This document shows positions 1 through 37,274 of a stretch of DNA of 37,773 nucleotides, in pieces (position 1 is the first letter of the stretch; each line of letters starts with the position of its first letter). The stretch is from a virus. Taxonomy: Duplodnaviria > Caudoviricetes. Below the pieces are notes generated by a model. It worked only from the letters and a program-made list of their open reading frames with translations. It ran no database searches and was not told the origin of the DNA. Both the position numbers and the translations under genes were made by a program. The stretch spans positions 1 to 37,773 of IMG/VR virus record IMGVR_UViG_3300048074_000106. One strand, 5' to 3'.

Positions 1-127
1 CGAACTCATCGAAGAGCCCGATGCCCACCTTCCTCGTCTTGTTCCCCTTGCGCCGCTCCTGGGTAAGACGCGTGCCAGCGTGGAACGCCTTGAGGCCCAT
101 GCCGGCGAAGGTGTACTCGCGAGAGAC
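1..127. repeat. Terminal direct repeat, left copy (circular assembly overlap)
   Basis: Bases 1-127 are identical to 37647-37773, and an ORF reads in frame across the join. 127 is a common assembler k-mer length. Confidence 0.97.
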
Positions 128-535
128 AGGTTCGGCCTTGGAGGGTCGAGCCCTGCCCGTAAGCGGGATCGCGACTGACTGCGCGCCCTGCCTGGGTTCC
201 TTGGTGCCACCGCGTTCGAAGATGGAAAGGAGTAGACGCCTCTGGCTCTTCTGGTCCGCTGCCTGAGCTACAAAGACTTCCGAGAACGGGCGCTGTTGCT
301 TGACAGAGGCGAACGGCTTGATCCTGGCCGCTACCCCGCCTGGGCGCTCGGGGGTGCCAAAGAAGAAGCGCGGGTTCCGAATAATGAACCGATCTCGCAT
401 GCTCGCGAACTCGGCCTGCTGAATGCGCTTGGCCGTGTTGTTGACCGCGTTGACGGTCGCATAGGCCAGGCGCTTCTCACCATTGCGCATGCGCAGGAGC
501 AGCTGGGTGTTGTCGATCGCGACATCGATCCTCAT
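1..535 (-). CDS. gpZ-like tail completion/neck protein, 5' part; continues across the join to 37363 (272 aa total)
   Basis: ATG at 535 overlaps the stop of the upstream HTH gene (ATGA). It reads MRIDVAIDNTQLLLRMRNGEKRLAYATVNAVNNTAKRIQQAEF...EYTFAG, then in frame into MGLKAFHAG of the 37363..37746 ORF. It is basic, with an 'A..AVN.TA' helix as in gpZ-like proteins. Confidence 0.7.
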   Translation of the reverse strand, partial: MRIDVAIDNTQLLLRMRNGEKRLAYATVNAVNNTAKRIQQAEFASMRDRFIIRNPRFFFGTPERPGGVAARIKPFASVKQQRPFSEVFVAQAADQKSQRRLLLSIFERGGTKEPRQGAQSVAIPLTGRARPSKAEPVSREYTFAGMGLKAFHAGTRLTQERRKGNKTRKVGIGLFDEF

Positions 536-804
536 GGGCGCCTCCCCTTGCGGGTAGCAATGGCCTGCATCTCGTCGCGGTGGGAGTAGATGGCATTCAT
601 GCTGAGCCGCCCTGAGGAGGCGGTGACGAGAGCCCGGGCGCGGTCCGGCCGTGGGGTTGTGCCGGCGAGCCAAGAGTAGACGGCTCCCGGCGTGACGGCC
701 GTGTTGGGGTCACGGCCGAGCTCCTCGACAATAGAGGCTACTGTCATCCGGCTCACCCAGCGTCCGAACCGGGTGCGCCACCGAAGTTGTTCCCGTCGAT
801 ACAC
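532..804 (-). CDS. Cro-like helix-turn-helix protein, 90 aa; candidate late regulator
   Basis: GTG at 804 follows an AGGAGG SD. VASIVEELG...VTPGAVYSWLAGTTPRPDRARAL is a Cro/XRE-type HTH pattern. Confidence 0.7.
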   Translation of the reverse strand: MYRREQLRWRTRFGRWVSRMTVASIVEELGRDPNTAVTPGAVYSWLAGTTPRPDRARALVTASSGRLSMNAIYSHRDEMQAIATRKGRRP

Positions 805-880
805 GCAAGCTGCCCTCCTGGACCTCGCATGATCGATGGGGGAAGTCTCAGCAGGCGCTCGATTCCCTGACGCCCACGCC
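805..880 (-). promoter_or_regulatory. Structured 5' leader with an SD-sequestering hairpin; target of the putative trans-acting RNA
   Basis: By hand, GC(G)CCU-G-CUG-A-GACUUC pairs with GAGGUC-CAG-G-AGGGC and buries AGGAGG. The minus-strand RNA over 835-863 is complementary to the minus-strand RNA over 30520-30539 and 30468-30477. Confidence 0.6.
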
Positions 881-884
881 ACGC

Positions 885-914
885 ATGGTACTCACAACTT
901 CAACACGTCGGCAA
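885..914 (-). promoter_or_regulatory. Sigma70-like promoter for the HTH-gpZ-terS-terL operon
   Basis: Minus strand reads TTGCCG-N18-TACCAT just after the tail gene stop at 919. Confidence 0.6.
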
Positions 915-918
915 GGGG

Positions 919-3357
919 TCAGACGCGGTCGGCTTCCCAGTCGTACTCAACGAGCGATGTGCGCCCGCCGCTGGCAACGGTCTGGATGGTGACTCTCAGG
1001 TGTGTGCTGAGTCGGCCGAGGCCGTTGTCGATCAGCTCCTGGACTTCGGTGTAGGCGAACGACGTTCCGGTGAGACCGGTCTCCGTGTGGATGAGGGTGC
1101 CCGTCTCGCCGTAGATCTTGAGGGTGTAGGTGGAGCCAGCCTCCATGTCCGAGGTGACGCCGGCGCTTGCGTAGCTCCAAGAGCCCAGTCGATTGCGGTG
1201 CGACCATGAGAGGGTGAGTGCGCCGGTAAACGTCGGAGGGAACACGTAGCTGTTCCACTTCACCGCGGTCGGCGCGTAGGGTCGCAGGGCGCGATTCGGG
1301 CTGGTGGACGTAACATCCACCTCAGGAGCGGACGCGAGCGCGATCTCATCCCGCTGGTTGTAGGCCTGGAACTTCACCCCGGTGACGCCAGCATTGAGAT
1401 TCACCAGGGAGCTGCCGTAGCTCAAGAACCAGACGCGCGCCCCGGCGGCGTGCTGGACCGCCTTGGTGTCGATGCAGCCGCGGATGCAGTCCATGAGCCT
1501 GATGCTGCCGGAGTTGCGGACCAGATCGCGGAAGGCGATGAACTCCTCGCCGTTTGGACCCGAGAGCCACAGGAGATTGCGGCCAGCTCCACAGTCGGCG
1601 TCGGTGCACGCCTGTATTACGTCGGTGTCCGGCCCGTCGAGGATCTCGATCTCGTCGTCAGTCTCAATGATCGAAGCTGAAAGAAGGCCAGAGGGCGTGA
1701 AGACCGGCTGGTCGTCGGACTCGCCGTAGGTGTGATCGAGCATCTCGACATAGGTTCGGAAGCCCATGGTGACGCCCCCACCATGCGCGGCCGCTACGAT
1801 GGCCCGCGGTGTCACGTCGGGGCCCGGTGACAGGCTCTGCACGTACGGCCAGGGCGCGCTGATGGCGATCTGGCCGACCAGCGCCGCGACGTCGCCGATG
1901 GGATCCTCCCATGCGCTGAGCGGCGGCGGACTGTAGGCCGTCCAGCCCACCCCGAAGATGTCTTGGGCGGCCTCGATGGCGATCTTCCCGGACTCCAGTC
2001 GGCCGGTTCCGATGCGCGCGACCCGGCAGATGAGGCCGCTGATGCCGAGCGGGGTCCAGTTCAGCTTGAATACCGTGCCCGGCCGGAAGGCCCATGCCAC
2101 GCGGTCGGCCTCGCCGGTGAGGACTCCCAGCGGATAAGCGAGCGAAGCAAAGGCACGCGCGACAGCAGCCTGGGCACTGGCAGCGTTGGAGAATCCTCGA
2201 TAGTTCAACTGTGCGATGGAGACTTCCCCGCCCTGTATGGCGATGGAGGCCAGGTCTTGGGCTTGAACCAAGCGTTCCTGGAAGTTCTCCGCGCGATCGA
2301 TGTAGGCGACGCGGACGGTGTTCCGGGTCTCACTCCATGCTGGCCGGGAGAACGACGTGAGGTTGAAGTTGGTCTCGTCGAGCACGGGCAACGTGGCAGG
2401 GTCGTAGTCGAGCCGGACCAGCTTGATCGTCAGGAGGCCCGTGAGCGGCTCGATGTAGGGTACGGCGTCCACGTGGCGCATGATCTCGATTAGGAGGTCC
2501 TGGGCGCTCGTGGCTTGATCCTGGAGCATGCTCAGGCCCATGCCCTCGGTTGCCAGCGTCTGACTTACAGCTATGAGGGCGGGCAGGTCGATTAGGCCGG
2601 CACTGATCCCGAGCCCATTGTTCGAGGGCGCGCTGGTGATCAGGTCATAGATCATGTTCGCGGGGTTGGCGTCCCCGCTGATGTTCTCGTCTCCGCCGGT
2701 GAGAGCGAGGCCATTCGGGGTGCGGCGCAGAACGAAGCTGATCGAGGGGATGGGCAGCGACTGCCCAAACTCGAATCCACCCGACATCGTGCCCTTGAAG
2801 ACGGCGTAGCAGACTCCACGATATGCGGGCACGGCTTCACCAACGACCGACTCGACGTAGGGCGATGGATCCTGGGTGGAGTTGCCCTTGAACACGGTCA
2901 CCGTGCCCTGGATGCCGCCACCCTTCTTCTTTCCTCCGTAGAAGTCCGGAAGGTAGAAGACGAAGTTGATGGCGTTGGCCGTGACGGTCTTCAGTGATGG
3001 GATGGCCTCGACGTCGTTGAACCGGATCGCAACAACGTCGTCGATGGTTCCGGAGCACAGCACCATCTCGAGCCCGAGCGTGTACCTGTAGGCCACAGTG
3101 GTGGTGTCGGATCCAACGCCGGCCTCTCTGGCGCTCACCGCTCTGATGCCGAGGTCGCCGTACCAGGTGACGATGCCTCCCTTCTGCTCGAAGGTTCCAC
3201 ACCCCCATGGAAGAGGGCGGCCCGCGCCGACCGAGGGAAAGTCGAGATCGCTCACGCCACCAGGGTCGAGCGATTGGCCCTTCGCCTTCGGGGCAAGCAG
3301 GTTGTATGCGATCTGGGCCGCGATCCACACGCCGACCTTAAGTATGAAGCCCCACAT
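919..3357 (-). CDS. Tail tip/baseplate hub protein (Phage-tail_3-like), 812 aa
   Basis: Motifs FPSVGAGRPLPWGCGT, WYGD, PAYRGVCY, DANPANMIYDL and LTLSWSHRNR are typical of D3112/YuA-type tail tip proteins. It is the last gene of the tail operon. Confidence 0.85.
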   Translation of the reverse strand: MWGFILKVGVWIAAQIAYNLLAPKAKGQSLDPGGVSDLDFPSVGAGRPLPWGCGTFEQKGGIVTWYGDLGIRAVSAREAGVGSDTTTVAYRYTLGLEMVLCSGTIDDVVAIRFNDVEAIPSLKTVTANAINFVFYLPDFYGGKKKGGGIQGTVTVFKGNSTQDPSPYVESVVGEAVPAYRGVCYAVFKGTMSGGFEFGQSLPIPSISFVLRRTPNGLALTGGDENISGDANPANMIYDLITSAPSNNGLGISAGLIDLPALIAVSQTLATEGMGLSMLQDQATSAQDLLIEIMRHVDAVPYIEPLTGLLTIKLVRLDYDPATLPVLDETNFNLTSFSRPAWSETRNTVRVAYIDRAENFQERLVQAQDLASIAIQGGEVSIAQLNYRGFSNAASAQAAVARAFASLAYPLGVLTGEADRVAWAFRPGTVFKLNWTPLGISGLICRVARIGTGRLESGKIAIEAAQDIFGVGWTAYSPPPLSAWEDPIGDVAALVGQIAISAPWPYVQSLSPGPDVTPRAIVAAAHGGGVTMGFRTYVEMLDHTYGESDDQPVFTPSGLLSASIIETDDEIEILDGPDTDVIQACTDADCGAGRNLLWLSGPNGEEFIAFRDLVRNSGSIRLMDCIRGCIDTKAVQHAAGARVWFLSYGSSLVNLNAGVTGVKFQAYNQRDEIALASAPEVDVTSTSPNRALRPYAPTAVKWNSYVFPPTFTGALTLSWSHRNRLGSWSYASAGVTSDMEAGSTYTLKIYGETGTLIHTETGLTGTSFAYTEVQELIDNGLGRLSTHLRVTIQTVASGGRTSLVEYDWEADRV

Positions 3358-4774: not shown

Positions 4775-5850
4775 GGCCTGAATCCATCCACGCTGAAGGT
4801 GAGGGCTTGGCTGGCGATGACGAGGCTCTCCCACGTGAGATCCTCGTCGGCGGATAGGCGCCCAATGACCAACGGCAGCACGGTCGTCGCCGGAGCGACC
4901 CAGGTGTTACGCAGCCCGAGGCTGAGGACGATGCGATCGGCCTGCACCTCAGCGATGCGCTGGGCCTCCCAGTGGTAGGGATCCGTCCAGAGCAGGACGA
5001 GGCCGTCTACCTCGAAGGGGAGGTTGGTGGTGTCGCAGAACACCTCGACCGCGTCAGCGAGAGCGTTTGCAACGAGCGGGGTCTGGAACTGCCACCGGCC
5101 GACGCCGAAGGCACGCGCCTGATTGCCGTGAAGGATTGCGTTGGCCATCTGAGCATCGCGCAGCTCGTTCAGGAGCACGGAGTAGGTGATGGACCCCACC
5201 GGTACGGCGCGCAGCTGGATGCGCTGCTCGTCGCCCCTAAACGCCTCGATGATGTCCGTCAGGTAGCCGAACCGCTCGACGACCGGGTCGGCCATGTTGG
5301 GAGGGAACGGGAATGGGATCAGTCGAAACCCGAGCAGGTGGAGGTTCGTGCCAGCCTCATCCACGCCGACGAAGACCCACGTGACCAGGTTGTCGATGAG
5401 CGGGTCACCTTCGGCGGAGACCTCGACCACGTAGACCTGGGAGTCGGAGGCGGGGAACCAGACCGGCTGCCCCAGGGTGTCGATCACAGAGACCCCGGGC
5501 GGGCCCTCCACAGTGATCTCCTGGAGCTGCTTCGCGCGCGACATGAAGGCGTTCCAGACCTCGACCTCGAGGGTCTGCTCAGAGACCACCGCGCCGAGGT
5601 CACTCCGGCGAGGGATGATGTGGATGCGGTCCAGGATCGCGAGGTCTGCCGCATGACTCCAGACGGCATTGAAATCGTAGGCGTCCGGACGCGGGTCGGC
5701 GAGGGCTGCTGAGAGCGCCGTAGAGGCATCCGGCGAGATCGCGAAGCTTTCGGCTGATGGCAGTGGCAGGACGGCGTTCGCGAGGTTGTCAGAAGCGTCC
5801 GGCCCGGTTGGGAGGGCAAGTGGCCCCGGAGCCAGGATTGCGATCGACAC
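4771..5850 (-). CDS. Virion structural (tail tip) protein, 359 aa
   Basis: DRIHIIP..DLGAVVSEQT..VEVWNAF and ERFGYLTDII...GDEQRIQLRAVP resemble D3112-type tail proteins. Confidence 0.78.
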   Translation of the reverse strand: MSIAILAPGPLALPTGPDASDNLANAVLPLPSAESFAISPDASTALSAALADPRPDAYDFNAVWSHAADLAILDRIHIIPRRSDLGAVVSEQTLEVEVWNAFMSRAKQLQEITVEGPPGVSVIDTLGQPVWFPASDSQVYVVEVSAEGDPLIDNLVTWVFVGVDEAGTNLHLLGFRLIPFPFPPNMADPVVERFGYLTDIIEAFRGDEQRIQLRAVPVGSITYSVLLNELRDAQMANAILHGNQARAFGVGRWQFQTPLVANALADAVEVFCDTTNLPFEVDGLVLLWTDPYHWEAQRIAEVQADRIVLSLGLRNTWVAPATTVLPLVIGRLSADEDLTWESLVIASQALTFSVDGFRP

Positions 5851-6852: not shown

Positions 6853-8445
6853 TCAGTCCAGGGCGACGGCTAGGAAGTCGTCGCGGTCGGTTCGGGTGAT
6901 GTTATGGAGCGCCATCCAATCGATAGCCCCCTTGCGCATGAGCGTCTCCGCAGTGAGCCCCTGACCGGACACGGCGGCAATCCCCCGGAGTTGGCCAATC
7001 GTGTTTGGAGCCGAGGCGTTCAACATGACAGGCCAGAGCGCGTAGGAACCGTCTAGGTTGACGTCGAGGAGGTTCATCCCGCAGACGTAGGGCCAAATCA
7101 GATTTGAATAGGCACCCGGTGCATTGATAGCGTCATTGCTTGTGGCCCGGAAGGGGATCCACGTTCCATCGAGGTTGCGTGCACGGAGTTGAGAGTCCTC
7201 CGGTTTGAGGTTCGGCGGTGTGTTGGACATAGTATCCGCATGGGTCGGCATCCGATGCTTGTCGCTTGTTTCGCTCCACCGATATAGCGTGCTCGACAAC
7301 GCGATGGGGGTCTCACCAAGGGCGAGCGTCCCACCCACCGCGAGCGGATAGGGCCATTGTTCGGGTGAGAAGTAGGGGTCCAGGAGGCCCAGGTAGGCCA
7401 TCTCGTATTGGGTGTTGATCTTGGCAATCACGATCACTCGCCGGCCGTCCGCGATGAACCAGTAGGGAATCGTAGCGTTCCATAGTGGAAGAAATAGTTG
7501 TCCTTGTGCCCCCGGCTGAAGCCTCAGATGGGAAGCAGCGACAAACCCGTCAAACCCGAACAGCTCCAAGTCGAAGTAGTCTGCGTCCGCTCGCTCGAAG
7601 GGGTGTGCCCCCACGAAGATTTCGCTGTCCCCGTCGTTACCCGGGGCCTTCCAGAGCATCTGCCCAGTGGCAACGTCCACGCCGTCGGCACGGCGCAGCC
7701 GGATGACTGAGAGGGACACGTCCGTGCCCTGCAGTGACGTAATGTGGAGTCGATAGCGCGTGGCCGCGACAGGCGACGCGATGGCGAATGAACTAACCAC
7801 GCCGGTGACCCCGGCGAAGTTGGTTCGGGTGTCGAGGGTGACCCACGCGGAACCGTTCCAATAGTCAAAGGTGAAGTTCTTCGGACTTAGCCAGTTGACA
7901 AACTCAGCAAGCTCATAAGCGACAATCGTTTCCTCTTGGTACAGAGTGATTTCGACGTCCTGAGGAAGAGTCGCGGTGGTGAACAGGCGCCAGTAGTCGG
8001 TCTCGACTCCATCGAGCTTGCCGTCGACAAGATTCTGAGCCGCGTAGGTGCCGGTGTTCTGCTGGGTCGCCAGCACCTTCGACCCCAGGGATCGCCGGAG
8101 CGTCGTCCACTTCGGAGCGGTCGAGAGCGTGAAGGCGTCCCCGGAGACGAATGCGGTCCCGCCGGCGGTCAACGTAAAGGCGAGCTTCGCGTGCGAGAAC
8201 GGCGTCCCGACCGTCGCCGGACCGATGCTCCCCGACACTGAACCGACGACGGTGAAGTTGGTGGCGGACGTCGCGGTGATCGTGAACGTCTCAGCGATCG
8301 AGTCCGCGCCGCCCTTGTAGGCGGTGAGGGTGCCGTCGCCGGTCCCTGCGTAGGCGAGGCCGTAGGCGCTGCCCGTGGCCGTCAGGAAGGTATCCAGGCG
8401 GTCCAGTAGGTCGACGAAGTTGGTGGCGGTACCGATCTCGAACAT
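6853..8445 (-). CDS. Virion structural tail protein with an inserted discoidin/F5-8-like domain, 530 aa
   Basis: FEIGTATNFVDLLDRLDTFLT N-terminus and IPYWFIADGRRVIVIAKI core. The insert reads YAAQNLVDG...W...PKNFTFDYWNGSAWVTLD...ATRYRLHIT. It lies directly after the tape measure. Confidence 0.78.
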   Translation of the reverse strand: MFEIGTATNFVDLLDRLDTFLTATGSAYGLAYAGTGDGTLTAYKGGADSIAETFTITATSATNFTVVGSVSGSIGPATVGTPFSHAKLAFTLTAGGTAFVSGDAFTLSTAPKWTTLRRSLGSKVLATQQNTGTYAAQNLVDGKLDGVETDYWRLFTTATLPQDVEITLYQEETIVAYELAEFVNWLSPKNFTFDYWNGSAWVTLDTRTNFAGVTGVVSSFAIASPVAATRYRLHITSLQGTDVSLSVIRLRRADGVDVATGQMLWKAPGNDGDSEIFVGAHPFERADADYFDLELFGFDGFVAASHLRLQPGAQGQLFLPLWNATIPYWFIADGRRVIVIAKINTQYEMAYLGLLDPYFSPEQWPYPLAVGGTLALGETPIALSSTLYRWSETSDKHRMPTHADTMSNTPPNLKPEDSQLRARNLDGTWIPFRATSNDAINAPGAYSNLIWPYVCGMNLLDVNLDGSYALWPVMLNASAPNTIGQLRGIAAVSGQGLTAETLMRKGAIDWMALHNITRTDRDDFLAVALD

Positions 8446-14042: not shown

Positions 14043-15953
14043 CTAGCTGATGGTGGCCCCGGTCGCCTTCACGAAGGACTCGCCGTGACGGAGCACGACG
14101 TCGCCCATCTGGAAGGAGGTGACCACGATGAGGCCCTTGCCGGCCTGGGTGTACGGGTCGACGACCAGCTCCATCGCGTCCCACAGGCCGATGAGCAGAT
14201 CGTTCCAGTCGCCGAAGATGAGCCCGTGCTTCGTGCTCGCCTCAAGCGTCTTCGAGACCTGGCTGGTGCTGACAGCCCGGTAGCCGGCCATGAAGCCGTC
14301 CGCGATGGGACCGGTCCAGATCATCTTCGAACCGGCCGCGCTCGCCTCGAGCGTGCACATCATGAGCGACGCCATGAGCGGCGTGGTCATGTAGCCGGGG
14401 CTGACGAGACGGACGTTCTTGTCCGCCGCGAGCCCCTGCATGCCCACGATCTTGGCGTGGGTGGGGACACCACCCATGGCCTGGGGCTGAACGTCGGGGG
14501 CGGTGTAAATGCCGGTCGGCTCGCCGTTGACCCCGCTGCCGTGCAGGCCAGCCAGGTCGATGGCCAGCGCGTGACCCATCGCCAGCTCATCCCGGACCAT
14601 CGCCTCGACGTCGATCGAGGACTGGGCCAGGAGCTGCCGCGAGTAGCTCGTCGCGCCCTGCATGGTCTTCGGGGTGAGGAAGACCTGGCCGGTGGCGACG
14701 TCGCTCTTGGTGACGTCGGCGGCCGGGTTCTCCCCGACCCAGTAGACCGTCATCCCGGCGGTCTTCTTCGGGAAGGTCAGCGGCCCGGTGAGACCGGTCA
14801 GGAGACGGGCGCCCATCTGGACGACCATGGCTCGCGCGCGCAGCAGATCGATCAGCTCGCCCGGCGAGTCCTGAACGAACTCGGCTCCGGCGCCGGCGGT
14901 CTTGGAGTCGAGCGCGCGGGTGCCGAGGCGCATGGGGACGAGGATCCCGCCTCGACTCTGGTAGTTCGCCGGCAGGCCGCGGGCGAGCTCCTTGTGCAGC
15001 TCGCCTTCGAGCCCGTCGAATCCGGAGCGCTCGCCCTTGGCGGCCTCGGTCGACATGCGCAGCGCGCGCGTGTAGGAGTACCTCGCCAGGTCCTTGTCCG
15101 GCATGCCGGTGCGCTCGGCCGCGGGCTGGCCGGTGCCCGCGGTCTTGCGGGCCTTCACGATCTCGTACCCCACCTGCTGCGGAGTCAGGCCCTGGCCGAT
15201 CCACTCGGAGGCGCGCTCGCTCAGGTTGTTGTTCTGGCAGATGGCCAAGATCTCCTGGACCTCGGCGTTGCGGTCGCGCTTGGGCTCGGGTGCGGAGGCC
15301 GGCGGGGGCTGGACCTCGACAGCGCTACGGGCGCCATTGGGCTGGGGGGTGGTTTCGGGCTCGGGCACCATGGTTCGCTCCTCCTGTGGGACGGCCTGGC
15401 CGTCCGATTCGATCTCGACTTCGAACTCCTCGCGGTTGTCTCCGCGCTCGAGGCCGACCGAGACATCGGCGGCCAGTGGCAAGATGTGGACTTCGACCGG
15501 CATCCATCGGGTGGCGTTCCAGGTGTCAGGCTTTCCGCCTTCTCCCTTCACGACCTTCGCCTTCATGACCCGGTAGCCGAGGGAGACCTGGGTGCGGATA
15601 CGATCCTGCACGTCCCCCTCAACCTCCTGGCCCTTGGCGCTGCGCGAGAACCGGACGTCGCCCTTGAGCTTCCCGCCCTCGATGCGACCGTTCTCGAAGA
15701 TCCCGACCTGGGTTCCCCAGTGGCCACCGATCTGATCGGCTGCCATGACGGAGAGCCCGCCCTTCAGGTAGCGCTTGTCGATCGCTCCTTCGTCGTGGCT
15801 CAGAACTTCCATTCCGAACCAGCGTTCGATGGCGACCTCGCTCGATACGCTGAAGGTGTACTTCCGCTGATCGCCTTCGGCCCTGCCTTCCGGCGGGAGC
15901 TCCGGGCCTTCGAAGGCTCGGTGCAGCATCGGCAGTTTGCGCGGATCGGGCAT
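14043..15953 (-). CDS. Fused HK97-type prohead protease / major capsid protein, 636 aa
   Basis: N-terminal SVSSEVAIERWFGMEVLSH...VRFSRS...VSLGYRV (protease); C-terminal WVGEN, SYSRQLLAQSSIDVE and LIFGDWNDLLIGLW...VDPY (capsid). Confidence 0.93.
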   Translation of the reverse strand: MPDPRKLPMLHRAFEGPELPPEGRAEGDQRKYTFSVSSEVAIERWFGMEVLSHDEGAIDKRYLKGGLSVMAADQIGGHWGTQVGIFENGRIEGGKLKGDVRFSRSAKGQEVEGDVQDRIRTQVSLGYRVMKAKVVKGEGGKPDTWNATRWMPVEVHILPLAADVSVGLERGDNREEFEVEIESDGQAVPQEERTMVPEPETTPQPNGARSAVEVQPPPASAPEPKRDRNAEVQEILAICQNNNLSERASEWIGQGLTPQQVGYEIVKARKTAGTGQPAAERTGMPDKDLARYSYTRALRMSTEAAKGERSGFDGLEGELHKELARGLPANYQSRGGILVPMRLGTRALDSKTAGAGAEFVQDSPGELIDLLRARAMVVQMGARLLTGLTGPLTFPKKTAGMTVYWVGENPAADVTKSDVATGQVFLTPKTMQGATSYSRQLLAQSSIDVEAMVRDELAMGHALAIDLAGLHGSGVNGEPTGIYTAPDVQPQAMGGVPTHAKIVGMQGLAADKNVRLVSPGYMTTPLMASLMMCTLEASAAGSKMIWTGPIADGFMAGYRAVSTSQVSKTLEASTKHGLIFGDWNDLLIGLWDAMELVVDPYTQAGKGLIVVTSFQMGDVVLRHGESFVKATGATIS

Positions 15954-15959
15954 CGCTGA

Positions 15960-16060
15960 GTTCTCCTTCGCGGTGATTCTTGCGGCTCACACCGAGGCCC
16001 GCTCAAGTCCAATCTAATTAGACTTGGAATCCCGCGTGGAGCGGTGCCACCGTGACGCGC
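15960..16060. promoter_or_regulatory. Divergent late promoter region with dyad symmetry
   Basis: CAAGTC-N11-GACTTG (16004-16026) overlaps the perfect palindrome TCTAATTAGA (16013-16022). It is an AT-rich island between divergent genes. Confidence 0.6.
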
Positions 16061-16606
16061 ATGAGCAACCTCGATCTCACCGCTCTGCCCGACTCTTTTC
16101 CCGCCGGCACGACCGTCATCTACACCAAGTCGTTCACGAACTTCTCGCCCACCGAATGGACGCTGAAGCTCTATTTGGCAGGACCGGACACGCTGAACGT
16201 GACTGCTGTCGCTTCCGGCGAGAGCTACGTGGTAACGATCCCGGCAACTTCAACGGCGGCTTCGCCGGCTGGTTCGTATCACTGGGTCGAGCGCGTCGAG
16301 AAGACGGGCGTTGTCTGTGATCTCGCCTCCGGACTCGTGATCCTCACCCCGAATCTGGCGACGGCCACCGACGGATCGCTCCAGGACTGGGCTGAGAAGG
16401 TGCTGCCCCTTGTCGAGGCGGCGATCGCGGGACGGATCCCGGCCGGGATGGAGAGCTATCAGATCGCTGGGCGGGCGGTGGCCAAGATCCCCATCCGCGA
16501 GCTCATGGCGCTGCGCGGCCAGCTCAAGAGCATGGTCGCCCAGGGCCAGAGCCGCACCCGCATCTCCCGTCCCATCCACATCAAGTTCCCCCAGACAGGG
16601 GCGTGA
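16061..16606 (+). CDS. Head-tail adaptor (gpW-like C-terminus with an N-terminal beta domain), 181 aa
   Basis: ESYQIAGRAVAKIPIRELMALR; lies directly before a lambda-type portal. Confidence 0.8.
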   Translation: MSNLDLTALPDSFPAGTTVIYTKSFTNFSPTEWTLKLYLAGPDTLNVTAVASGESYVVTIPATSTAASPAGSYHWVERVEKTGVVCDLASGLVILTPNLATATDGSLQDWAEKVLPLVEAAIAGRIPAGMESYQIAGRAVAKIPIRELMALRGQLKSMVAQGQSRTRISRPIHIKFPQTGA

Positions 16607-28922: not shown

Positions 28923-29249
28923 CTATTCGGGCCCCATCTGCGCCCTCTTGCGCGGCTCCCCGAAGCTGAGCGTCCCGCCGGCAGGCACACCGAGGCCGAT
29001 CGTCACGTCTCCGGTGTAGTCAGCGGTCGCCCCGTCGGGCGTGGTTACCCGGATCGCCAGCTGGGCGGAGCCCACGATCCCGGTCGCCCGCGCGATCCCC
29101 GTCCCCGGATTATCCGGGCTCTCGATGAACTCGCAGACCTCGGTGTTGCTCGACATGAACTCCACCGAGGCGATCTCGCACGGGTCCCCGTCGTCATCCA
29201 CGACGGGCGGCAGGGCGACATCCACCTCTTCGTCAATCTCGAACCTCAT
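28923..29249 (-). CDS. Acidic Ig-like (Big_2-like) protein without signal peptide, 108 aa
   Basis: AGGAG SD. VDDDGDP...VEFMSSNTEVCEF...ATGIVGSAQLAIRV...TGDVTI is an Ig-like strand pattern, followed by the tail GVPAGGTLSFGEPRKR. Confidence 0.72.
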   Translation of the reverse strand: MRFEIDEEVDVALPPVVDDDGDPCEIASVEFMSSNTEVCEFIESPDNPGTGIARATGIVGSAQLAIRVTTPDGATADYTGDVTIGLGVPAGGTLSFGEPRKRAQMGPE

Positions 29250-29253
29250 CCGC

Positions 29254-29397
29254 TCATCTCCTCTTTCGTGGCGCGCCGAAGATGAGCCTGCCCCCCGTGG
29301 GCTGCCCCGGCTTCGAGCGCATCCGTAGCACTCCGAATAGAAACCAACTGACCACGATCCCAATCGCGACACCCACGGCGATGAGCACGACGGTCAT
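29254..29397 (-). CDS. 47-aa single-TM peptide (not in the ORF track)
   Basis: ATG overlaps the upstream stop (ATGA). Sequence MTVVLIAVGVAIGIVVSWFLFGVLRMRSKPGQPTGGRLIFGAPRKRR fills the gap exactly and contains the SD of the next gene. Confidence 0.8.
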   Translation of the reverse strand: MTVVLIAVGVAIGIVVSWFLFGVLRMRSKPGQPTGGRLIFGAPRKRR

Positions 29398-29624
29398 GCC
29401 GGTCGCCCCACGAGAGCGAGCTCAGGTGTTGGCCCCGGTCCGCACTGAGAACCGAGTCCTGTGCGACGCTCCTGATTGGGGATCGGCGGCAGTCGCAGCC
29501 ATGCGTCGTGGATCATCTCGAGCGTGGTCCGCGTCCACCCGCACGCGGAGCAGGACCAGGTGCCGCGCTGCCCGGCGACCGGGGGCGTGAAGATGGTGAG
29601 CTCACCGCAGTCGGGGCACTTCAT
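29394..29624 (-). CDS. Zinc-ribbon protein, 76 aa
   Basis: MKCPDCG...WSCSACGW; ATGA overlaps on both sides. Confidence 0.7.
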   Translation of the reverse strand: MKCPDCGELTIFTPPVAGQRGTWSCSACGWTRTTLEMIHDAWLRLPPIPNQERRTGLGSQCGPGPTPELALVGRPA

Positions 29625-29806
29625 CGCGGCACCGACGATGCGAGGTGCTCGGCGCGCTTGATTGCGCCGTAGCGCTCGCGGTTCGCCCTCATGGCCAGAA
29701 AGACTGCATGGTCGACCCGGCCCTCCTTCGCGATCGCCGCCGCCTTCCGTGCGCGGTTCCGATTGCCGGGCTTTCTCTTGCGCCCCCGCTGGCGCCCGCG
29801 GCTCAC
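29621..29806 (-). CDS. Small basic hypothetical protein, 61 aa
   Basis: GTGA/ATGA overlaps with both neighbours. Confidence 0.6.
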   Translation of the reverse strand: MSRGRQRGRKRKPGNRNRARKAAAIAKEGRVDHAVFLAMRANRERYGAIKRAEHLASSVPR

Positions 29807-30402
29807 TCCCGGTCTCCCGCGGGCACGGCGAACTCGGCGCCGCCGGCGAAGGGGATCCGCTTCTGCAGCACCGCGGACTCGATCTTGCGGAGCGTGTCAT
29901 TCCAGGCGCCGTGACGGTTCAGGGCCTCCGGGTAGACCTCGCACGGGCTCACGTTCTCGAGCGCCCCGGAATCCAGCTTGCGGTGGAGGCGGCAGAGCTC
30001 GGTGTCGATGAGCGCGAGTCGGTCCTTCTGGTTGAGGTCCTTCCACACCATCCAGGCCACCTTGAGCGTGGCGTCGATGCCGGAGAGACATGCCATCTCC
30101 ACACTGAACTTGGAGACTCGCGCGGCGATGCTGCGGCCGCCCCGGTTCATGGCTTTCTGCACGAAGAGGCAGCGGATCTTCACGTTGACCAGGTCGCTGT
30201 GATACTCAAGCGCTCGCTTCACCACCGGCACGACCTCGGGCGCATCGATCAGCTTCTCCTCGACCCCCTGCTCGTTCACCGGCCAGAGAGCTAGCGAAGG
30301 CACGGCCTTTGGTTCCAGCTGCTCCCCGGCCGGCGGGTACTCCACCCGAGTCCGGCGGGCGCGCGCCGCGGGATCCAGCTTGGCCTCCGATCGCTTCACC
30401 AT
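29803..30402 (-). CDS. Putative phage metallopeptidase-like protein with degenerate zinc motif
   Basis: HSDL.NVKIRCLF, W.DLNQKDRLALIDTELCRL and E.LNRHGAW; GAGGAG SD. Confidence 0.65.
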   Translation of the reverse strand: MVKRSEAKLDPAARARRTRVEYPPAGEQLEPKAVPSLALWPVNEQGVEEKLIDAPEVVPVVKRALEYHSDLVNVKIRCLFVQKAMNRGGRSIAARVSKFSVEMACLSGIDATLKVAWMVWKDLNQKDRLALIDTELCRLHRKLDSGALENVSPCEVYPEALNRHGAWNDTLRKIESAVLQKRIPFAGGAEFAVPAGDRE

Positions 30403-30454
30403 CTCAACTCCTCGCCCGAGCCACCCCTGAGCCCAGGCACAGCGCCCGTCTTCG

Positions 30455-30571
30455 CCGCCGGTCGAAGATCGAGCGCCCCCCTTTGCATCCCCGGCGGTTC
30501 GCGGTCCTGGCTGAACTTGCTGCTGAGACTTCCCCCATCTCTAGCCCCGTCGTCCTACCATCGGACCGCGA
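30455..30571 (-). ncRNA. Putative two-hairpin trans-acting antisense/activator RNA
   Basis: Lies in a 175-bp intergenic gap. Stems UCGCGGUCC/GGACCGCGA and CCGCCGG/CCGGCGG each enclose a block complementary to the leader at 835-863. Confidence 0.6.
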
Positions 30572-30577
30572 GTACTC

Positions 30578-30802
30578 TCAACGAACAGGCGCTGCCAACT
30601 GGGGCAGCGCCTCCCCCAACCAGAGCAGGAAGAGCGCGAGGAACAGCACGAAGGCCACCTGAAAGCAGAAGCCCCAGCGGACCTCGATGCCCATCTCCCA
30701 TCGAAGCCAGCGCCCCGCGGCGCGCGCCGCGCGGGCGAGCAGCTCGTCCACCTTCACCTGACGATCAAGATCTCCAGGTTCCGTCCAGCTCTGCATGCTC
30801 AT
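30578..30802 (-). CDS. Small membrane protein, 74 aa
   Basis: C-terminal hydrophobic helix; start overlaps the upstream stop (ATGA). Confidence 0.6.
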   Translation of the reverse strand: MSMQSWTEPGDLDRQVKVDELLARAARAAGRWLRWEMGIEVRWGFCFQVAFVLFLALFLLWLGEALPQLAAPVR

Positions 30803-31047
30803 CTCCTTTGCGCCACCGACGGGGAAGCGGGCAAGGTGGGTAGCACCGGAACCCGCCCCCCCGCCGTGGACGCACGCTCGGCTTTCGCCCTGCGCTCCGT
30901 AGCGCGCCTCTCAAGCTCCGCCTTTGCGATCAGCCCGAGGGACGCGAATGCCTTCACCAAGGGATCCGGATCGTTGCCGCAGCGCTCCGCGATCCGCGCC
31001 CACGTCACCAGGGCGCTGTTTGGCTCGCGGGCGAGGGCGGGAGTCAC
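30799..31047 (-). CDS. Hypothetical protein, 82 aa
   Basis: Start overlaps the cro stop (GTGA) and follows a GGAG SD. Confidence 0.55.
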   Translation of the reverse strand: MTPALAREPNSALVTWARIAERCGNDPDPLVKAFASLGLIAKAELERRATERRAKAERASTAGGRVPVLPTLPASPSVAQRR

Positions 31048-31316
31048 GGTCTCTCCCGCCGCTCATCGAGGATGCTGGTGTCGAAGAGGGCGTCCGGCCG
31101 GATCCGAAACGCGTTCACCATCGCCTGGATGAAGCGGTAGGACGGCCCCCCACGGCCGGAGAGCCAGACCTTCACCGCGTTCTCCGAAGCCCCGATCGCG
31201 CCTGCAAACTGACCGGGCGTAAGGCCTGTGGCCTCCAAGTGCGCCTGGAGCTTGCGGCTGCAAAGAGTCTGCGAGGACTCAGTTTGTGCCAATCCGACCA
31301 CCTGATGCTTGCCCAT
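31044..31316 (-). CDS. Cro-like XRE HTH regulator, 90 aa
   Basis: ATG at 31316 follows GGAGG. GLTPGQFAGAIGASENAVKVWLSGRGGPS; divergent from the repressor. Confidence 0.85.
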   Translation of the reverse strand: MGKHQVVGLAQTESSQTLCSRKLQAHLEATGLTPGQFAGAIGASENAVKVWLSGRGGPSYRFIQAMVNAFRIRPDALFDTSILDERRERP

Positions 31317-31319
31317 GTC

Positions 31320-31420
31320 TAACCCTCCGCGCCTAAGATCGTCCTCATAAGACCAAAAATCAAGCCCCAAAATGGTAGGACGGGCTATTTATTTTGTGGG
31401 TCTGGTAAGATGTTGCGCGG
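31320..31420. promoter_or_regulatory. cI/cro genetic switch region
   Basis: AT-rich gap between divergent HTH genes with four TARGAY half-site-like words, the dyad GTCCT-CAT-AAGAC and an extended -10 TGGTAAGAT toward cI. Confidence 0.65.
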
Positions 31421-31433
31421 GGAGGCGTTGAGA

Positions 31434-32111
31434 GTGAAGGAAACCGGGGATAGGCTGTACCGATTCCGGACCCTTGCCCGGCTTAGCCGCGCGGCGCTCG
31501 CAGAGATGTCCGGCGTCTCAGCGACTTCCATTCAGCGAATCGAAGCCGGCCGAGACATGACGATCGACACGGCCCGCGCTCTCGCCAAGGCGCTCGGCGT
31601 TTCTCTCGCCGAACTGACCGGCGAGGAAGCCCCCACCGAGCCGCCTCCGCGCAGAGAACGGGCCGTCATGGCCCCCTCCCCAGTAGTCGGCTATGTGGCT
31701 GATCGCGCTCCCGCTGGTGGCAGACCCATCCCGGTGATCTCCTGGGTTTCCGCAGGCGACGGTCTCGAGTACACCGACCAGGGCTACCCACCCGGTGTGA
31801 GCGACGAGTGGGTCGACCGCCCTGCAAACGTCCGCGATCGCCGGGCCTACGCGGTGCGCGTGGTCGGTGATTCGATGAGCCCCGTGATTCTGGCCGGCGA
31901 CGTGGTCGTCCTCGTGCACGATCACGAGGCCTCAGCCAACGACCTGGTCCTCGTGAAGCTCAAGTCCGGGGAGGTCTTCCTGAAGCTCCTGAGTCGGCAC
32001 GATGGGCACTTCGTGCTAGTGTCCGCCAACCCCCTGTATCCCCCATTGGTGGTCGCGCTCGACGAGCTGATGTTCCCCCCTCGCAAGGTGGCTGCGATCC
32101 TGAAGAGGTGA
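31434..32111 (+). CDS. CI-like repressor (XRE HTH + S24 peptidase)
   Basis: N-terminal HTH, cleavage site IPVISWVSAG, VVGDSMSP (Ser) and VFLKLL (Lys). Start taken at the GTG after GGAGG; 31410 and 31428 are alternatives. Confidence 0.93.
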   Translation: MKETGDRLYRFRTLARLSRAALAEMSGVSATSIQRIEAGRDMTIDTARALAKALGVSLAELTGEEAPTEPPPRRERAVMAPSPVVGYVADRAPAGGRPIPVISWVSAGDGLEYTDQGYPPGVSDEWVDRPANVRDRRAYAVRVVGDSMSPVILAGDVVVLVHDHEASANDLVLVKLKSGEVFLKLLSRHDGHFVLVSANPLYPPLVVALDELMFPPRKVAAILKR

Positions 32112-32114
32112 ACC

Positions 32115-32579
32115 ATGCGTTGCCAGTTGGGTACCTGCCTCCTGATTGTCCTCATGCTCACCGGTTGTGCCTCTGCTCCTCGCCAGCATGACTACGACAA
32201 GATGTTCACTTATGCCGAGGACTACGAGTCGATCTGGAAAGCCGTGATCGCTACGTTCGCCGAACTCAATCTTCCCATTTCCAATCTAGAAAAGGACTCG
32301 GGTTTGGTCATGACCGACTGGATCGACGTCGGATCGACCGACTTTGAGGGCAGAGCCTGCGATTGCGGCAAAGCAGGGCTGGCGACCACGCTGGCGACTC
32401 GCATGAAGTTCAACGTCTTCGTACGAGACGACAGCGGCGAAGGCATATCGGTGACGGTCAATGTCACATCTCAGCAACTCCGCGAGTTATTGGACGAGCA
32501 GAAGTGGTTTCCCTGCACATCACTCGGAAGCCTGGAGTCCGCCATCAACGTGAAGATCTCCAGTCACCTCAGATCCTAG
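32115..32579 (+). CDS. Lipoprotein, BamC-like alpha/beta domain
   Basis: Lipobox LTG|C; YESIWKAVIATFAELNLPI.NLEKDSGLV.TDW. Confidence 0.75.
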   Translation: MRCQLGTCLLIVLMLTGCASAPRQHDYDKMFTYAEDYESIWKAVIATFAELNLPISNLEKDSGLVMTDWIDVGSTDFEGRACDCGKAGLATTLATRMKFNVFVRDDSGEGISVTVNVTSQQLRELLDEQKWFPCTSLGSLESAINVKISSHLRS

Positions 32580-32597
32580 CGCCACGGAGGCTATGCC

Positions 32598-33044
32598 ATG
32601 CGTGTGCTGGTCATCGCTCTATGCCTTGTCGTCACGGGCTGCGCGAGCACGACCCCAAGGGACACCTACTACTCAGAGATGAACGCTGCGACCTCCGCCG
32701 ACTCCTTGAACTCCACCACCTTGTCCAGCGCTGACTGCTACCTCATGGGCAAGGACTCCGCGAAGGAATGGGTCAACACGGGCTGGGACACGGCCAACGG
32801 ATTCGCGGGCGGCCTCTTGTTCGGCGTGATAGGTGCCGCAATCAGCTATGCCTTCGTGGACGAACCATCGCCTCCATCGGATCTGACCTCTGACCTGAAA
32901 GAGAAGGGGTGTCGAGCGGCCTTCCGCATCGGATACGGCGAGGCTGGGCAATCGAAGAAGAGGAGTGCCACGCTGACCGGGGGGATCATTGGCACCGCGA
33001 CTCTCATTGCCATCTACGTCTCCACCTATTCCGGCTCCTACTGA
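32598..33044 (+). CDS. Lipoprotein with two Gly-rich hydrophobic segments
   Basis: GGAGG SD, lipobox VTG|C, GFAGGLLFGVIGAAISYAF and GGIIGTATLIAIYV. Confidence 0.75.
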   Translation: MRVLVIALCLVVTGCASTTPRDTYYSEMNAATSADSLNSTTLSSADCYLMGKDSAKEWVNTGWDTANGFAGGLLFGVIGAAISYAFVDEPSPPSDLTSDLKEKGCRAAFRIGYGEAGQSKKRSATLTGGIIGTATLIAIYVSTYSGSY

Positions 33045-34684: not shown

Positions 34685-36637
34685 CTACTTCCAACCGTCC
34701 ACCCAGCCGCCACGCTTCCGCGCGCGCGGCCGCGGCGCGCTCGCTACCGGCGCCTCGGGAAGCGGCTCCTCTGGAGAATCAACTTGGGAGGCGAGCCGCG
34801 CGGCGCGCTCCGGAAGGGAGCGAATCACCGGCTGCCCCAGGATGTGCAGCGCGGCCAGGCAGTAGACCTCGAGGTCGAGCGCTTCGTTGCGCTCCCGCAA
34901 CTTGATCCACTCCCGCACCCGGCCCCGGTTCTTCACCCACTTCCAGATCGCCTTCTCGGCCGTGAGCTGCTCGAGGTACTCGACGTCGACCCAGTCGGGG
35001 AGGTGGACGAACCCAGGCCCCTTCGACTTGATCCGCAGGCGGGAGAGGATGATGTCCTTGGCGGTGTCGACGCAGAGGGTGAAGAGCTTCGCGTGGTAGC
35101 GGTTGTGGGTGGTCGGCCGCTTGGGCACGACCGGCTTCCCCTTCTCGTTCCCGCCGCGGACTGCGAAGACCCGACGGTGGAGTCGGGCCCGGCAGAACTT
35201 GTAGACCTCCTCGGTGTGGTGACCGCCGGAGTCGACGGTGACGCAGGAGATCTTGATCTTGCGGCCGCTCTCGTGAACGAACTCCTGGGTGAGGAACTTG
35301 TCGAGCTCGAGCCAAGTGCTCTCGTGAACCGGATCCCCGTGCACCTGATGGAAGGCGATCAGCCACGACTCCTCGCCGGCGCCGTACCCCTTCACCTGAG
35401 CCTCGATGCGATCGCCTTGGACGTCGACCGCTGCGACGAGGATTCCCACGCCGGCGGGGACCTCGGCGACGTAGCTCTCGAGCCGGCCGACCAAGCTGTC
35501 GGCGTCGAGCGAGTCTCCGCGCTCCTCCCAGGTCTCCCCGAGGACGGTGTTCACCCAGGTCTGTAGGCGGAACGGATCCTCCTTCCCTTCAATGAACTCG
35601 GACACGCATTCAGCCCAGGATTTCCACCCGAGCGGAGAGTAGAGGGCGGAGAGGTGGAACCCGACCGTCCGCCCCGTGCTCTTCGCCGTGGGCCGCCACT
35701 CCCCACCGGCGAGCATCAGCGTCTTGTACCGTTCCTCAATGAGGCGCTCGCACGCCACGCAGGCCAGCTTCGCCGTCTCTGGGCGAGCCTCTTCCCACCG
35801 GATGTTCTCCCAGCGGATCCAGTCGAAGTGGCCACAGTGGGGGCAGGCCACGAAGTAGCGGCGCTGGTCCGAGGCCAGGAACTCCTTCTCGATGCGGGAG
35901 ACGCCCTTCATGGTGGGCGTCGACGTCATGAGGATCTTGCGACGAGGGAAGGTGGCGGTGCGTTTCTCGGCGAGGGAGACCGGATCCCCTTCGCTCTCCA
36001 CGTTTCCGGGATAAGCGTCTACCTCGTCCATGAAGAGAAATCTCGCCGGCATGCGACGGAGCCCCTTCGCTGAGTTCGCCCCCGTGATCGCCAGGATCCC
36101 ACCGGGGAACTCCTTCATGAGGGTCGTGTTCCCCGAGTCCCGCGATCGAGCCTCCTTCACCAGTGCGCGTAGCGCCGGCGTCTCCTCGATCATGGGAGAG
36201 AGGCGCTGCTTGCTCTCCGCCCGGGCAATGTCGACGGTCGGTTCCACGAACAGGACCGGACCCGGAACGTGGTGGATGATGTAGCCGATCGCGTTGTTTA
36301 TCGCTTCCGTCTTGCCCACCTGGCTCCCGGCCATGAAGACCACTCGCCGGGCACGGTTGTGAGCCGACATGCAGTCCATCGGCTCCCGGAGGTAGGGCGC
36401 CCTCGAAGTGCGCCAGGGCCCCGGCTCGCTCGAGGTCATCGAGCTCAGGACGCGGTGCTCATCCGCCCACTGGCTGACCGTGAGGACCGGGTCCGGCGCG
36501 AAGCCGCGGGCGGCGGCGTCGAAGACGATGAATCGGGCGCGCCGACGTTGGTCGTCTCCTTCCGGATCGTCTTCGACAAGGCCGAGCTCAGCTGGTTCAG
36601 AGCTCCCCGGATCGCGTCTTCGAGGATGTCGTGGCAC
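34685..36637 (-). CDS. Terminase large subunit, lambda GpA family
   Basis: VSQWADEHR, EPGPWRTSRAPYLREPMD, Walker A SQVGKT, Walker B FMDEVD, STPT, CPHC, VDVQ, DSGG and RNEALD. Confidence 0.97.
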   Translation of the reverse strand: MPRHPRRRDPGSSEPAELGLVEDDPEGDDQRRRARFIVFDAAARGFAPDPVLTVSQWADEHRVLSSMTSSEPGPWRTSRAPYLREPMDCMSAHNRARRVVFMAGSQVGKTEAINNAIGYIIHHVPGPVLFVEPTVDIARAESKQRLSPMIEETPALRALVKEARSRDSGNTTLMKEFPGGILAITGANSAKGLRRMPARFLFMDEVDAYPGNVESEGDPVSLAEKRTATFPRRKILMTSTPTMKGVSRIEKEFLASDQRRYFVACPHCGHFDWIRWENIRWEEARPETAKLACVACERLIEERYKTLMLAGGEWRPTAKSTGRTVGFHLSALYSPLGWKSWAECVSEFIEGKEDPFRLQTWVNTVLGETWEERGDSLDADSLVGRLESYVAEVPAGVGILVAAVDVQGDRIEAQVKGYGAGEESWLIAFHQVHGDPVHESTWLELDKFLTQEFVHESGRKIKISCVTVDSGGHHTEEVYKFCRARLHRRVFAVRGGNEKGKPVVPKRPTTHNRYHAKLFTLCVDTAKDIILSRLRIKSKGPGFVHLPDWVDVEYLEQLTAEKAIWKWVKNRGRVREWIKLRERNEALDLEVYCLAALHILGQPVIRSLPERAARLASQVDSPEEPLPEAPVASAPRPRARKRGGWVDGWK

Positions 36638-37155
36638 TGTGCCTCCTCAGTTGTCGCCGCCATGGCGGAAGCCAGACGTGCCGGCAGGGTGTTGAAGGCG
36701 TCGCGCGCCGCGCGGCAGGCCTCGTAGATGTCGCCGGCGAGCGTCTCTCCCCGGATAACCAGGCCGGCCTCGCGCTCGTAATTGAGGCGGGCCATCTTGG
36801 CCAGGAACTTCTCGCGTTCCCCGCGGGACTTCGCGTACGAGCTGAGGGGCTCCGGGTCGTGACCGTTGCCGGGTGCGGGCTCATCCCCCGCCGGCAGCGC
36901 TGCCGCCCGCCTCGGCCTGGTCGCCCCCATCGGCGTCGAAGGAGCGCCTGGTTTCCGGCGCAACTTGGGGTCCCCGGTGACGGAGTTCAGGGGCTTGGAG
37001 TGGTCCGTCCGCTCCGCCCACTGCTTGTCCGCCCGGGCGGAGTCGATCTTCCCGTCCTTCCGCCTGGTGATCCTGCCGTCCGCGATCGCCTTCTGCACCG
37101 CTGTGTGGGAGACACCCCGGTGCTTGGCATAGGCGCGTACTGACAGAAGAGGCAT
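36445..37155 (-). CDS. Terminase small subunit (Nu1-like), 236 aa
   Basis: HTH LSVRAYAKHRGVSHTAVQKAI..GRI; AKMARLNYEREAGLV...ARDAF..LPARLA. Confidence 0.88.
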   Translation of the reverse strand: MPLLSVRAYAKHRGVSHTAVQKAIADGRITRRKDGKIDSARADKQWAERTDHSKPLNSVTGDPKLRRKPGAPSTPMGATRPRRAAALPAGDEPAPGNGHDPEPLSSYAKSRGEREKFLAKMARLNYEREAGLVIRGETLAGDIYEACRAARDAFNTLPARLASAMAATTEEAQCHDILEDAIRGALNQLSSALSKTIRKETTNVGAPDSSSSTPPPAASRRTRSSRSASGRMSTAS

Positions 37156-37232
37156 CTCAGAGGGTGGCGGCAATCAGGGCGACGGCAACCCCTTGCGGAA
37201 ACTTGTCTTGCGTCACCGACGCTAGAGAAGGA

Positions 37233-37274
37233 CCGGGGTCGCCGTCACCCGTGGGGGTTGTTGTGGAAGGACCC
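37233..37274 (-). other. Lambda-like cos site (cosQ plus cosN-like)
   Basis: Minus strand GGGTCCT-TCCACAACAACCCCCACGGGTGA-CGGCGACC-CCGG. GGGTCCT equals lambda cosQ, and CGGCGACC matches the core of the lambda cohesive end GGGCGGCGACCT. It lies just upstream of terS. Confidence 0.7.

Follow-up and report, generated by a model that had tools for sequence, protein, structure and literature searches.

A putative trans-activating antisense switch in a temperate phage: an early structured RNA complementary to the leader of a distant HTH gene

Descriptions of phage RNAs that activate a phage gene in trans are few, and IsrK of the Salmonella prophage Gifsy-1 was the only case that surfaced in the literature searched. 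This sRNA is reported to act in trans: it pairs with one of the two strands of an inhibitory helix, turns on translation and, via coupled genes, feeds the late-type regulator AntQ (PMC4825925). Natural toehold switches are called scarce in one review (PMC8601185). The phage RNAs C4 of P1/P7 (RF01695) and CI of P4 are structured RNAs within longer transcripts, with a long P1 stem and an antisense loop (PMC5320573, PMC2864571, PMC4825925). In the host, DsrA pairs with the upstream arm of the inhibitory stem in rpoS, and the activating duplex can also be a site for RNase III (PMC2831331).

Here we describe a locus at which, in folding models, an early structured RNA appears to open the leader of an HTH gene in trans. 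This would be a trans-activating antisense switch of toehold-like layout, a reading to which we give about an even chance. A guide and target that form a real and conserved pair, with an activating geometry that is plausible, is what two genomes and the folding models suggest when taken together. Within the literature searched, which left most subscription papers outside, neither this RNA nor the unlocking of a late HTH gene by a distant early RNA is reported. IsrK is the closest known system in its working; both would be prophage RNAs that act in trans on a phage mRNA by pairing with one side of a helix that inhibits it. IsrK, however, belongs to the transcript that it targets, forming its 5' part, and pairs imperfectly (PMC4825925), whereas the guide described here is encoded some 8 kb from its target on the circular map, within the early operon, and presents a perfect match of 16-20 nt from a hairpin loop. 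No sequence likeness between the element and IsrK was detected by Rfam.

The layout resembles that of a synthetic toehold switch, in which the Shine-Dalgarno sequence (SD) lies in a loop, the start codon lies in the 3' arm and the trigger is directed against the 5' arm and not the SD (PMC10132225, PMC8601185). Two of four toehold-switch features (SD in loop, start in 3' arm) are predicted here, while an unstructured toehold of about 12 nt and the release of both SD and start are not. Compared with the synthetic designs, the internal loop offers at most 2-3 nt in place of a free 12-nt toehold, the GUG is paired and not bulged, and 15 bp remain after the trigger has bound. Because there is no free toehold, entry by loop kissing or during transcription is likely. 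The element shares with C4 and P4 CI the general build outlined above; it differs from C4 in having no Rfam model match and one conserved antisense segment instead of a'/b', and in a target that is distant and not flanking, with predicted activation in place of repression or termination. The lack of a match to the RF01695 model rules it out as a C4 RNA. Bipartite pairing of the a'/b' type was not found, as the second 10-nt segment is buried, unfavourable and degraded in the relative. Pairing with the upstream arm of an inhibitory stem in a duplex that may be cut by RNase III is a trait in common with DsrA on rpoS; DsrA differs in being a host sRNA that is Hfq-dependent and pairs imperfectly (PMC2831331), whereas here a phage RNA would pair perfectly with another from the same phage. 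The hallmark of an anti-antisense activator, a complement to the inhibitory lower 5' arm, is present over 16-20 nt in two phages; a cis-repressed leader of the Isaacs type is not, the helix between 5' arm and SD having a probability of 0.000 once the first codons are included.

The window, by which we mean the whole stretch of 37,773 nucleotides that was analysed, is the circular record of a temperate phage with 37,646 unique bases, a terminal repeat of 127 nt and a GC content of 65%. Annotation with PHROGs of 46 proteins picked from the ORF list gave matches to a large serine integrase/recombinase and to cI-like and cro-like genes, with the early operon on the minus strand and the portal (+) and capsid-tail (-) operons divergent. 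The HTH gene (804-532) forms a cassette with the gpZ-like gene, terS and terL, located after the last tail gene and across the circular junction (Table 1). The sole close relative found, G001, is complete and fully syntenic, with DNA identity of 72-85% in long blocks and identities of 93% for terL and 80% for HTH. The 3' end of terL is duplicated in G001 (37985-38061 and 39377-39453; 88% identical) around some 1.3 kb of extra DNA, which looks as if an element had been inserted at the terL end. The N-terminus of cI, cro and the intergenic region (window 31316-31410; G001 4884-4948) have strongly diverged between the two phages, and the C-terminus of cI and the downstream early genes are kept, a pattern like that of a swapped immunity module. 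In spite of this divergence, G001 retains both the leader and the guide.

Table 1. Positions in the window of the features discussed in the text.
Feature	Position	Strand	Remarks
-35-like hexamer TTGCCG	909..914	-	directly after last tail gene stop (919-921); identical in G001
-10-like hexamer TACCAT	885..890	-	TACTAT in G001; 18-nt spacer to -35
5' hairpin of leader	853..875	-	holds bases that the sequence-only reading paired with the SD
Antisense target	835..854	-	20 nt; conserved core 835-850; lower 5' arm of leader rod
Upper 17-bp stem	796..836	-	SD AGGA (819-816) in tetraloop; GUG (804-802) in 3' arm
Lower-stem 3' arm (early codons)	781..794	-	imperfect guide look-alike; predicted to be displaced
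HTH ORF	532..804	-	90 aa; TGA overlaps gpZ-like ATG (535)
gpZ-like minor tail gene, 5' part	1..535	-	phrog_1924; continues 37646-37363 over circular junction
cos-like site	37236..37274	-	between gpZ and terS; resembles lambda's joined ends; kept in G001
terS, terL	34685..37173	-	terS 37173-36445 (likely start ATG 37155), phrog_57; terL 36637-34685, phrog_15
cro-like and cI-like pair	31044..32111	cro -, cI +	PHROGs
Structured early-operon element	30442..30571	-	130 nt, non-coding; after 74-aa early ORF
P1 of element	30571-30563/30507-30499	-
Guide hairpin of element	30545-30522	-
Guide	30520..30539	-	GGGGGAA loop and 3' arm of guide hairpin
Possible 7-bp pseudoknot	30497-30491/30461-30455	-	junction with P3 loop
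P3 of element	30476-30442	-
9-5-9 palindrome	16004..16026		divergent capsid/portal promoter region (15953-16061)

The promoter hexamers, the SD (AGGAGG, 819-814) and the GTG start (804-802) were all confirmed where the sequence-only reading had placed them. Both hexamers and 10 of the 18 spacer bases are kept in G001, and the leader is predicted to start near 878 and to measure about 75 nt. Within 250 nt upstream, 5/12 loci of the HTH family have a TTG..TAnnnT pair, where 0.02 would be expected for that length of this genome; a stricter sigma-70 scan gave 0 sites in 1-3000. The motifs seen between cI and cro have no recognisable copy at the leader promoter, so that it may fire in the lysogen. 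Another phage, G014, carries a 16-nt motif seven times (at most 2 mismatches) at 7747, 20834 and 29247-33044; five copies lie among clustered small genes and another immediately precedes the -35 of its HTH gene, which suggests DNA-level control of the HTH promoter in that phage. The preference for GTG 804 over the downstream ATG (MTVAS) was upheld, because the motif R-W-x-T-x-F-G, invariant in the family, and most alignments start upstream of that Met: it falls near profile position 26, and 142 of the 150 best family matches align from profile position 17 or lower.

The ATGA overlap between the HTH and gpZ-like genes is present in the window but absent in G001, where the stretch shared by the two ORFs measures about 25 nt and gpZ is provided with a separate SD. 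Relative to gpZ, terS lies beyond the cos-like site, to which the names cosQ and cosN would apply, and because of the cos-like stretch between gpZ and terS the two gene pairs, HTH-gpZ and terS-terL, are probably located at opposite ends of the virion DNA. The further proposal that the switch gates packaging can be kept in an indirect form only: terS and terL are downstream, but terS lies about 190 nt past gpZ and has its own start. The cos-like region (in G001 at about 35590-35630) is followed by repeats of the TTG(C/T)C type, and about six short repeats of this type are also found upstream of the HTH homologue in L098.

The leader is predicted to fold as a rod in all 24 combinations of start and end (12 per phage; MFE). 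In the upper stem 15/17 pairs are invariant and the two that are broken in register are re-formed by a shift in G001; the lower stem UUCCC/GGGAA keeps 5/5 pairs, and the 5' hairpin 7/7, three of them via one-sided changes, and in the window this hairpin competes with a longer lower stem. Counted over 29 pairs of the rod, 24 are invariant, three have one-sided changes and still pair, and two are broken in register, with no two-sided pair changes between the window and G001. The z-score of the fold is -1.38 in the window, where 18 of 200 shuffles are as good, and -3.01 in G001. The AGGA is predicted to be unpaired (about 1.0) in both phages, the last GG of the SD to be paired, and the GUG to be paired in every fold. 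This geometry is not that of the sequence-only reading, in which the target was the anti-SD arm of a stem composed of GACUUC/GAGGUC, CUG/CAG and CCU/AGG. Such a stem reaches a probability of 0.23 only on RNA ending at 800; at ends 785 and 770 the value is 0.000, with the first codons the stem is some 9-10 kcal/mol worse, and 3/14 of its pairs are broken in G001, none of them compensated. Because the stem vanishes once the first codons are included, the target is not an anti-SD arm; it is predicted to pair with the early codons. The idea of a start locked in cis survives, being predicted in both phages, but with the SD in the loop and the GUG in the 3' arm.

The cost of opening positions -15 to +13 around the GUG was calculated in five window lengths and compared with that of 38 other starts, which were assigned by us and include the MTVAS start. 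The free HTH start costs 20.5-28.0 kcal/mol (median of the comparison 14.5-15.5), and only 0-3 of the starts compared are closed to the same degree. Blocking of the target brings the cost to 13.8-16.8 kcal/mol, which is about the genome median, and in G001 it goes from 23.1-25.5 to 14.5-15.0 kcal/mol; a lower cost was obtained in all windows tested in both phages. A blocked window closer to the SD than the real target leaves the start more open (10.5-16 kcal/mol). After binding, a 15-bp hairpin (-15.6/-14.0 kcal/mol) still covers the GG of the SD and the GUG, with an unpaired probability of at most 0.04. The earlier claim that the activator frees the SD is retained as regards direction, which is activating in the folding models of two phages, but by itself binding is not predicted to free the SD and the GUG, since the 15-bp hairpin remains. 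Swapping of the P1 3' strand onto the upper arm of the leader was rejected by eye for its large net loss. Opening of UUCCCCC costs at most 4.7 kcal/mol until +12 has been transcribed and 6.6-10.2 kcal/mol from then on; in the finished leader the 16-nt target is mostly paired and costs 11-16 kcal/mol to open.

The hairpin that stays shut speaks for an inhibitory role of the pairing, a rival that we think unlikely. As with C4 and CI, the early RNA would bring about cleavage and decay of the leader, block ribosome standby or promote Rho-dependent termination, and HTH-gpZ-terS-terL would be delayed until early transcription wanes. Precedent exists in C4 and P4 CI, phage antisense RNAs which are cut from longer transcripts and which repress or terminate (PMC5320573, PMC4825925), and a duplex of 16-20 bp could be a nuclease site, as described for DsrA on rpoS (PMC2831331). 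Against this, binding lowers the predicted opening cost in all windows tested of both phages, added repression looks redundant for a start that, in the free leader, is already one of the phage's most closed, and no terminator-like site is found in 1-3000.

The case for activation by an early RNA begins with the complementarity itself. Target and guide are exact complements over 20 nt, and the complementary partner of the sequence-only reading exists at the sequence level. The pair is the only non-terminal repeat of at least 16 nt in the genome, and just two of 376 windows of 120 nt match elsewhere over 16 nt or more, both belonging to this pair; in G001 a match of at least 16 nt is found for 8 of 412 windows, including its own copy of the pair and the terL duplication. 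The 16-nt core is identical (16/16) at both ends in G001 and occupies the same two places in the genome, and the flanks of the guide keep only 9/18 and 2/14 bases. Other runs are invariant as well, namely 38/38 bases of P1, pseudoknot and junction and 22/23 leader bases 3' of the target, and since these long runs lie outside the duplex, comparison of the two genomes indicates that each RNA is under constraints besides pairing. The core is free of changes and hence of covariation, both copies being the same in the two genomes; just outside the core the comparison shows one pair with a two-sided change, two pairs lost and one gained.

Among 7,522 windows the leader is the best non-self site of the guide (-43.1 kcal/mol, the next being -27.2), as it is among 8,252 windows in G001 (-36.2, the next being -30.5). 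After deduction of the cost of opening both RNAs, the core is predicted to bind with a net -5.6 to -11.6 kcal/mol, and loop kissing yields -1.8 to -4.6 kcal/mol. Other potential targets of the guide in the early region are no better than chance and lack conservation. A target of 29 nt, as formerly proposed, is not supported: the extra 10 nt (854-863 with 30468-30477) are about 42 nt away in the partner and buried in hairpins of both RNAs, their net binding energy is unfavourable (+1.8 to +8.6 kcal/mol), and G001 has them in degraded form (+6.1 to +8.8 kcal/mol).

Homologues were sought widely, and the guide-target pair was found in only two independent genomes, the window and G001. Viral pattern scans returned only G001 and one fragment (L022) that is identical over the leader; L004, which carries the 20-mer in an unrelated and apparently coding context, was dropped as chance. 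A scan for the pseudoknot pattern yielded one true homologue in 79 loci, the rest being chance-like by inspection, and a search via the protein upstream of the element gave no further homologue. In GTDB genomes none of 197 stretches was confirmed from the HTH alignment, and none of six pattern matches scored with the covariance model; among annotated phages nothing was found below E=2. The covariance model, a weak one built on two sequences, retrieved only these two from 43 sources (582,253 bases, some of them incomplete records), and this leader and its partner were not found at 10 other HTH-family loci, several from incomplete records.

It could be argued from the absent covariation and from the long invariant runs in both neighbourhoods that the two RNAs never meet. 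The match would then have arisen by chance or be left over from a short inverted duplication, with each copy kept by its own fold, the leader as a self-limiting locked start and the element as a separate structured RNA. Chance matches of 16-20 nt do occur in other GC-rich phages, and a 16-nt match lies in coding sequence upstream of the HTH gene of G005. We nevertheless hold this explanation to be rather improbable: a 7-nt unpaired loop belongs to the invariant guide although its sequence is unneeded by the fold, the match coincides with precisely the arm locking the start codon, and it is the only such match in the genome, recurring at the same two places in G001.

In the early-operon element P1 and P3 are predicted to be of 9 and 13 bp, and 37/37 pairs are kept in G001, four with two-sided changes, all in P3; this covariation comes from two sequences, and the same is reached by 30 of 500 shuffles. 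The pseudoknot is unsupported by covariation because its 7-bp complement is invariant. The z-score is -3.67 in the window and -2.13 in G001, with -1.22 for the plus strand, and the GGGGGAA loop has an unpaired probability of 0.99-1.0, also in a 400-nt context. Rfam gave three chance-level matches in the window, none of them at the element, and 0 matches at E<=5 for the G001 loci L078 and L082. The 38-nt invariant run that contains the pseudoknot complement is without a partner elsewhere in the genome and is perhaps a module for 3'-end protection or processing. A promoter for the element alone was not found by eye, for which reason the element is likely part of the cro-side transcript; terminator-like sites were not found on the minus strand between cro and the element, and the cro/cI pair is the likely source of an early transcript, of inferred extent, that carries the guide.

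Contigs were available from six RNA runs, counting repeats once (X4, X8, X10, X11, X12), and for the leader only from one DNA run (X9). Being unstranded contigs of depth 1-18 with possible DNA carry-over, they are not counted as evidence here. Of four RNA runs none covers 30521-30637; two end by the foot of P3, at 30438 and 30442, two stop at 31319 before cro and two at 801-805, and one RNA contig spans the whole leader. No joints or strand changes were seen in the RNA-run contigs. Run X4 (831-1126, 30720-30950) also holds contigs of a G001-like variant, with the same indels at 876 and 915, and both phage types are therefore present in it.

The direction of action might also be the reverse, with the late leader, or a fragment of it, serving as a sponge or feedback on an early element that is itself a cis-acting structure for processing or antitermination. 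The element is located inside the early operon, and a large conserved part of it (P1, pseudoknot, P3) is unpaired with the leader, as this reading would have it. We regard it as quite improbable, given that blocking of the guide leaves the next early start unchanged (10.1 vs 10.1 kcal/mol), that the gene after the element differs in G001 and that the locked start is on the leader side. Action of the copies as DNA, in the form of a shared protein-binding site or the ends of an invertible segment, is very improbable, for although they form an inverted repeat in a phage with a large serine recombinase, their orientation is the same in both complete genomes, inversion would separate the HTH gene and the early genes from their promoters, the dyad present in the early copy is disrupted in that of the leader, and the G-U pairs, together with the z-scores, favour RNAs of the coding strand.

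The HTH protein is all-helical (AF2 pLDDT 87.9) and of weak Cro/YdaS-like likeness (phrog_35, E=0.0014). It has no match in Pfam, only weak rows (YdaS, Cro, repressors) and no significant family in Foldseek, and Atlas matches below 0.9 that are leads only. It belongs to a large, unnamed phage family of 452 clusters at E<=0.001, and is a candidate late regulator. When 272 window ORFs were compared, the genes common to 10/10 relatives were those for HTH, gpZ, capsid, portal, the pre-portal protein and one head-tail protein, a count that is biased because six of the 10 relatives were fetched via an HTH query. Two copies of the family are found in G003, one (23042) after a tail gene and one (31323) directly after a cro-like gene; the latter is a CII-like position, which recurs in L100 and L104.

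The 9-5-9 palindrome just upstream of the pre-portal gene is the only such AT-rich one in this genome and a candidate operator, possibly for the HTH protein. A counterpart was found at the same place in 8/11 genomes and in none of G006, G014 and G015, with one extra site in G010. The palindromes are of two sequence types, which track overall relatedness and not the residues of the recognition helix, and the helix TPGAVY occurs with both; binding of the palindrome by the HTH protein is for this reason a lead only. The pre-portal gene looks leaderless by eye in several relatives, with a -10-like hexamer 6-8 nt before the start.

In the activating switch that we prefer, a host-type promoter behind the last tail gene would produce the leader of about 75 nt, and this is predicted to fold to the rod with the SD in the loop and the GUG and first codons paired. 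After induction or infection, the cro-side transcript would supply the element (30571-30442), and its GGGGGAA loop would meet UUCCCCC, most easily while the leader is being synthesised. The resulting duplex of 16-20 bp is predicted to displace the imperfect coding-strand arm and to free the early codons, and the remaining 15-bp hairpin would have to be overcome by the ribosome or by RNase III cleavage in the duplex. The HTH protein could then act on late genes, perhaps, as a speculation, at the capsid/portal palindrome. The HTH gene would in this manner be licensed only once early transcription runs.

A more ambitious version is that of a natural toehold-type switch, in which an uncatalogued pseudoknotted RNA, cut from a cro-controlled early transcript, unlocks a Cro-like late activator that binds the capsid/portal palindrome; we advance it tentatively and would sooner doubt than accept it. 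Were it true, RNA pairing would carry the early-to-late step, which would persist through exchanges of the immunity module, and the protein relays so replaced would be of the Q, Ogr or C type. If the preferred switch itself is right, it would constitute a compact pair of 75 nt and 130 nt with a structured RNA outside Rfam, it would link the late genes of a temperate phage to induction with no need for a repressor operator at their promoter, and it would provide a first handle on a large phage HTH family of 452 clusters that is still unnamed.
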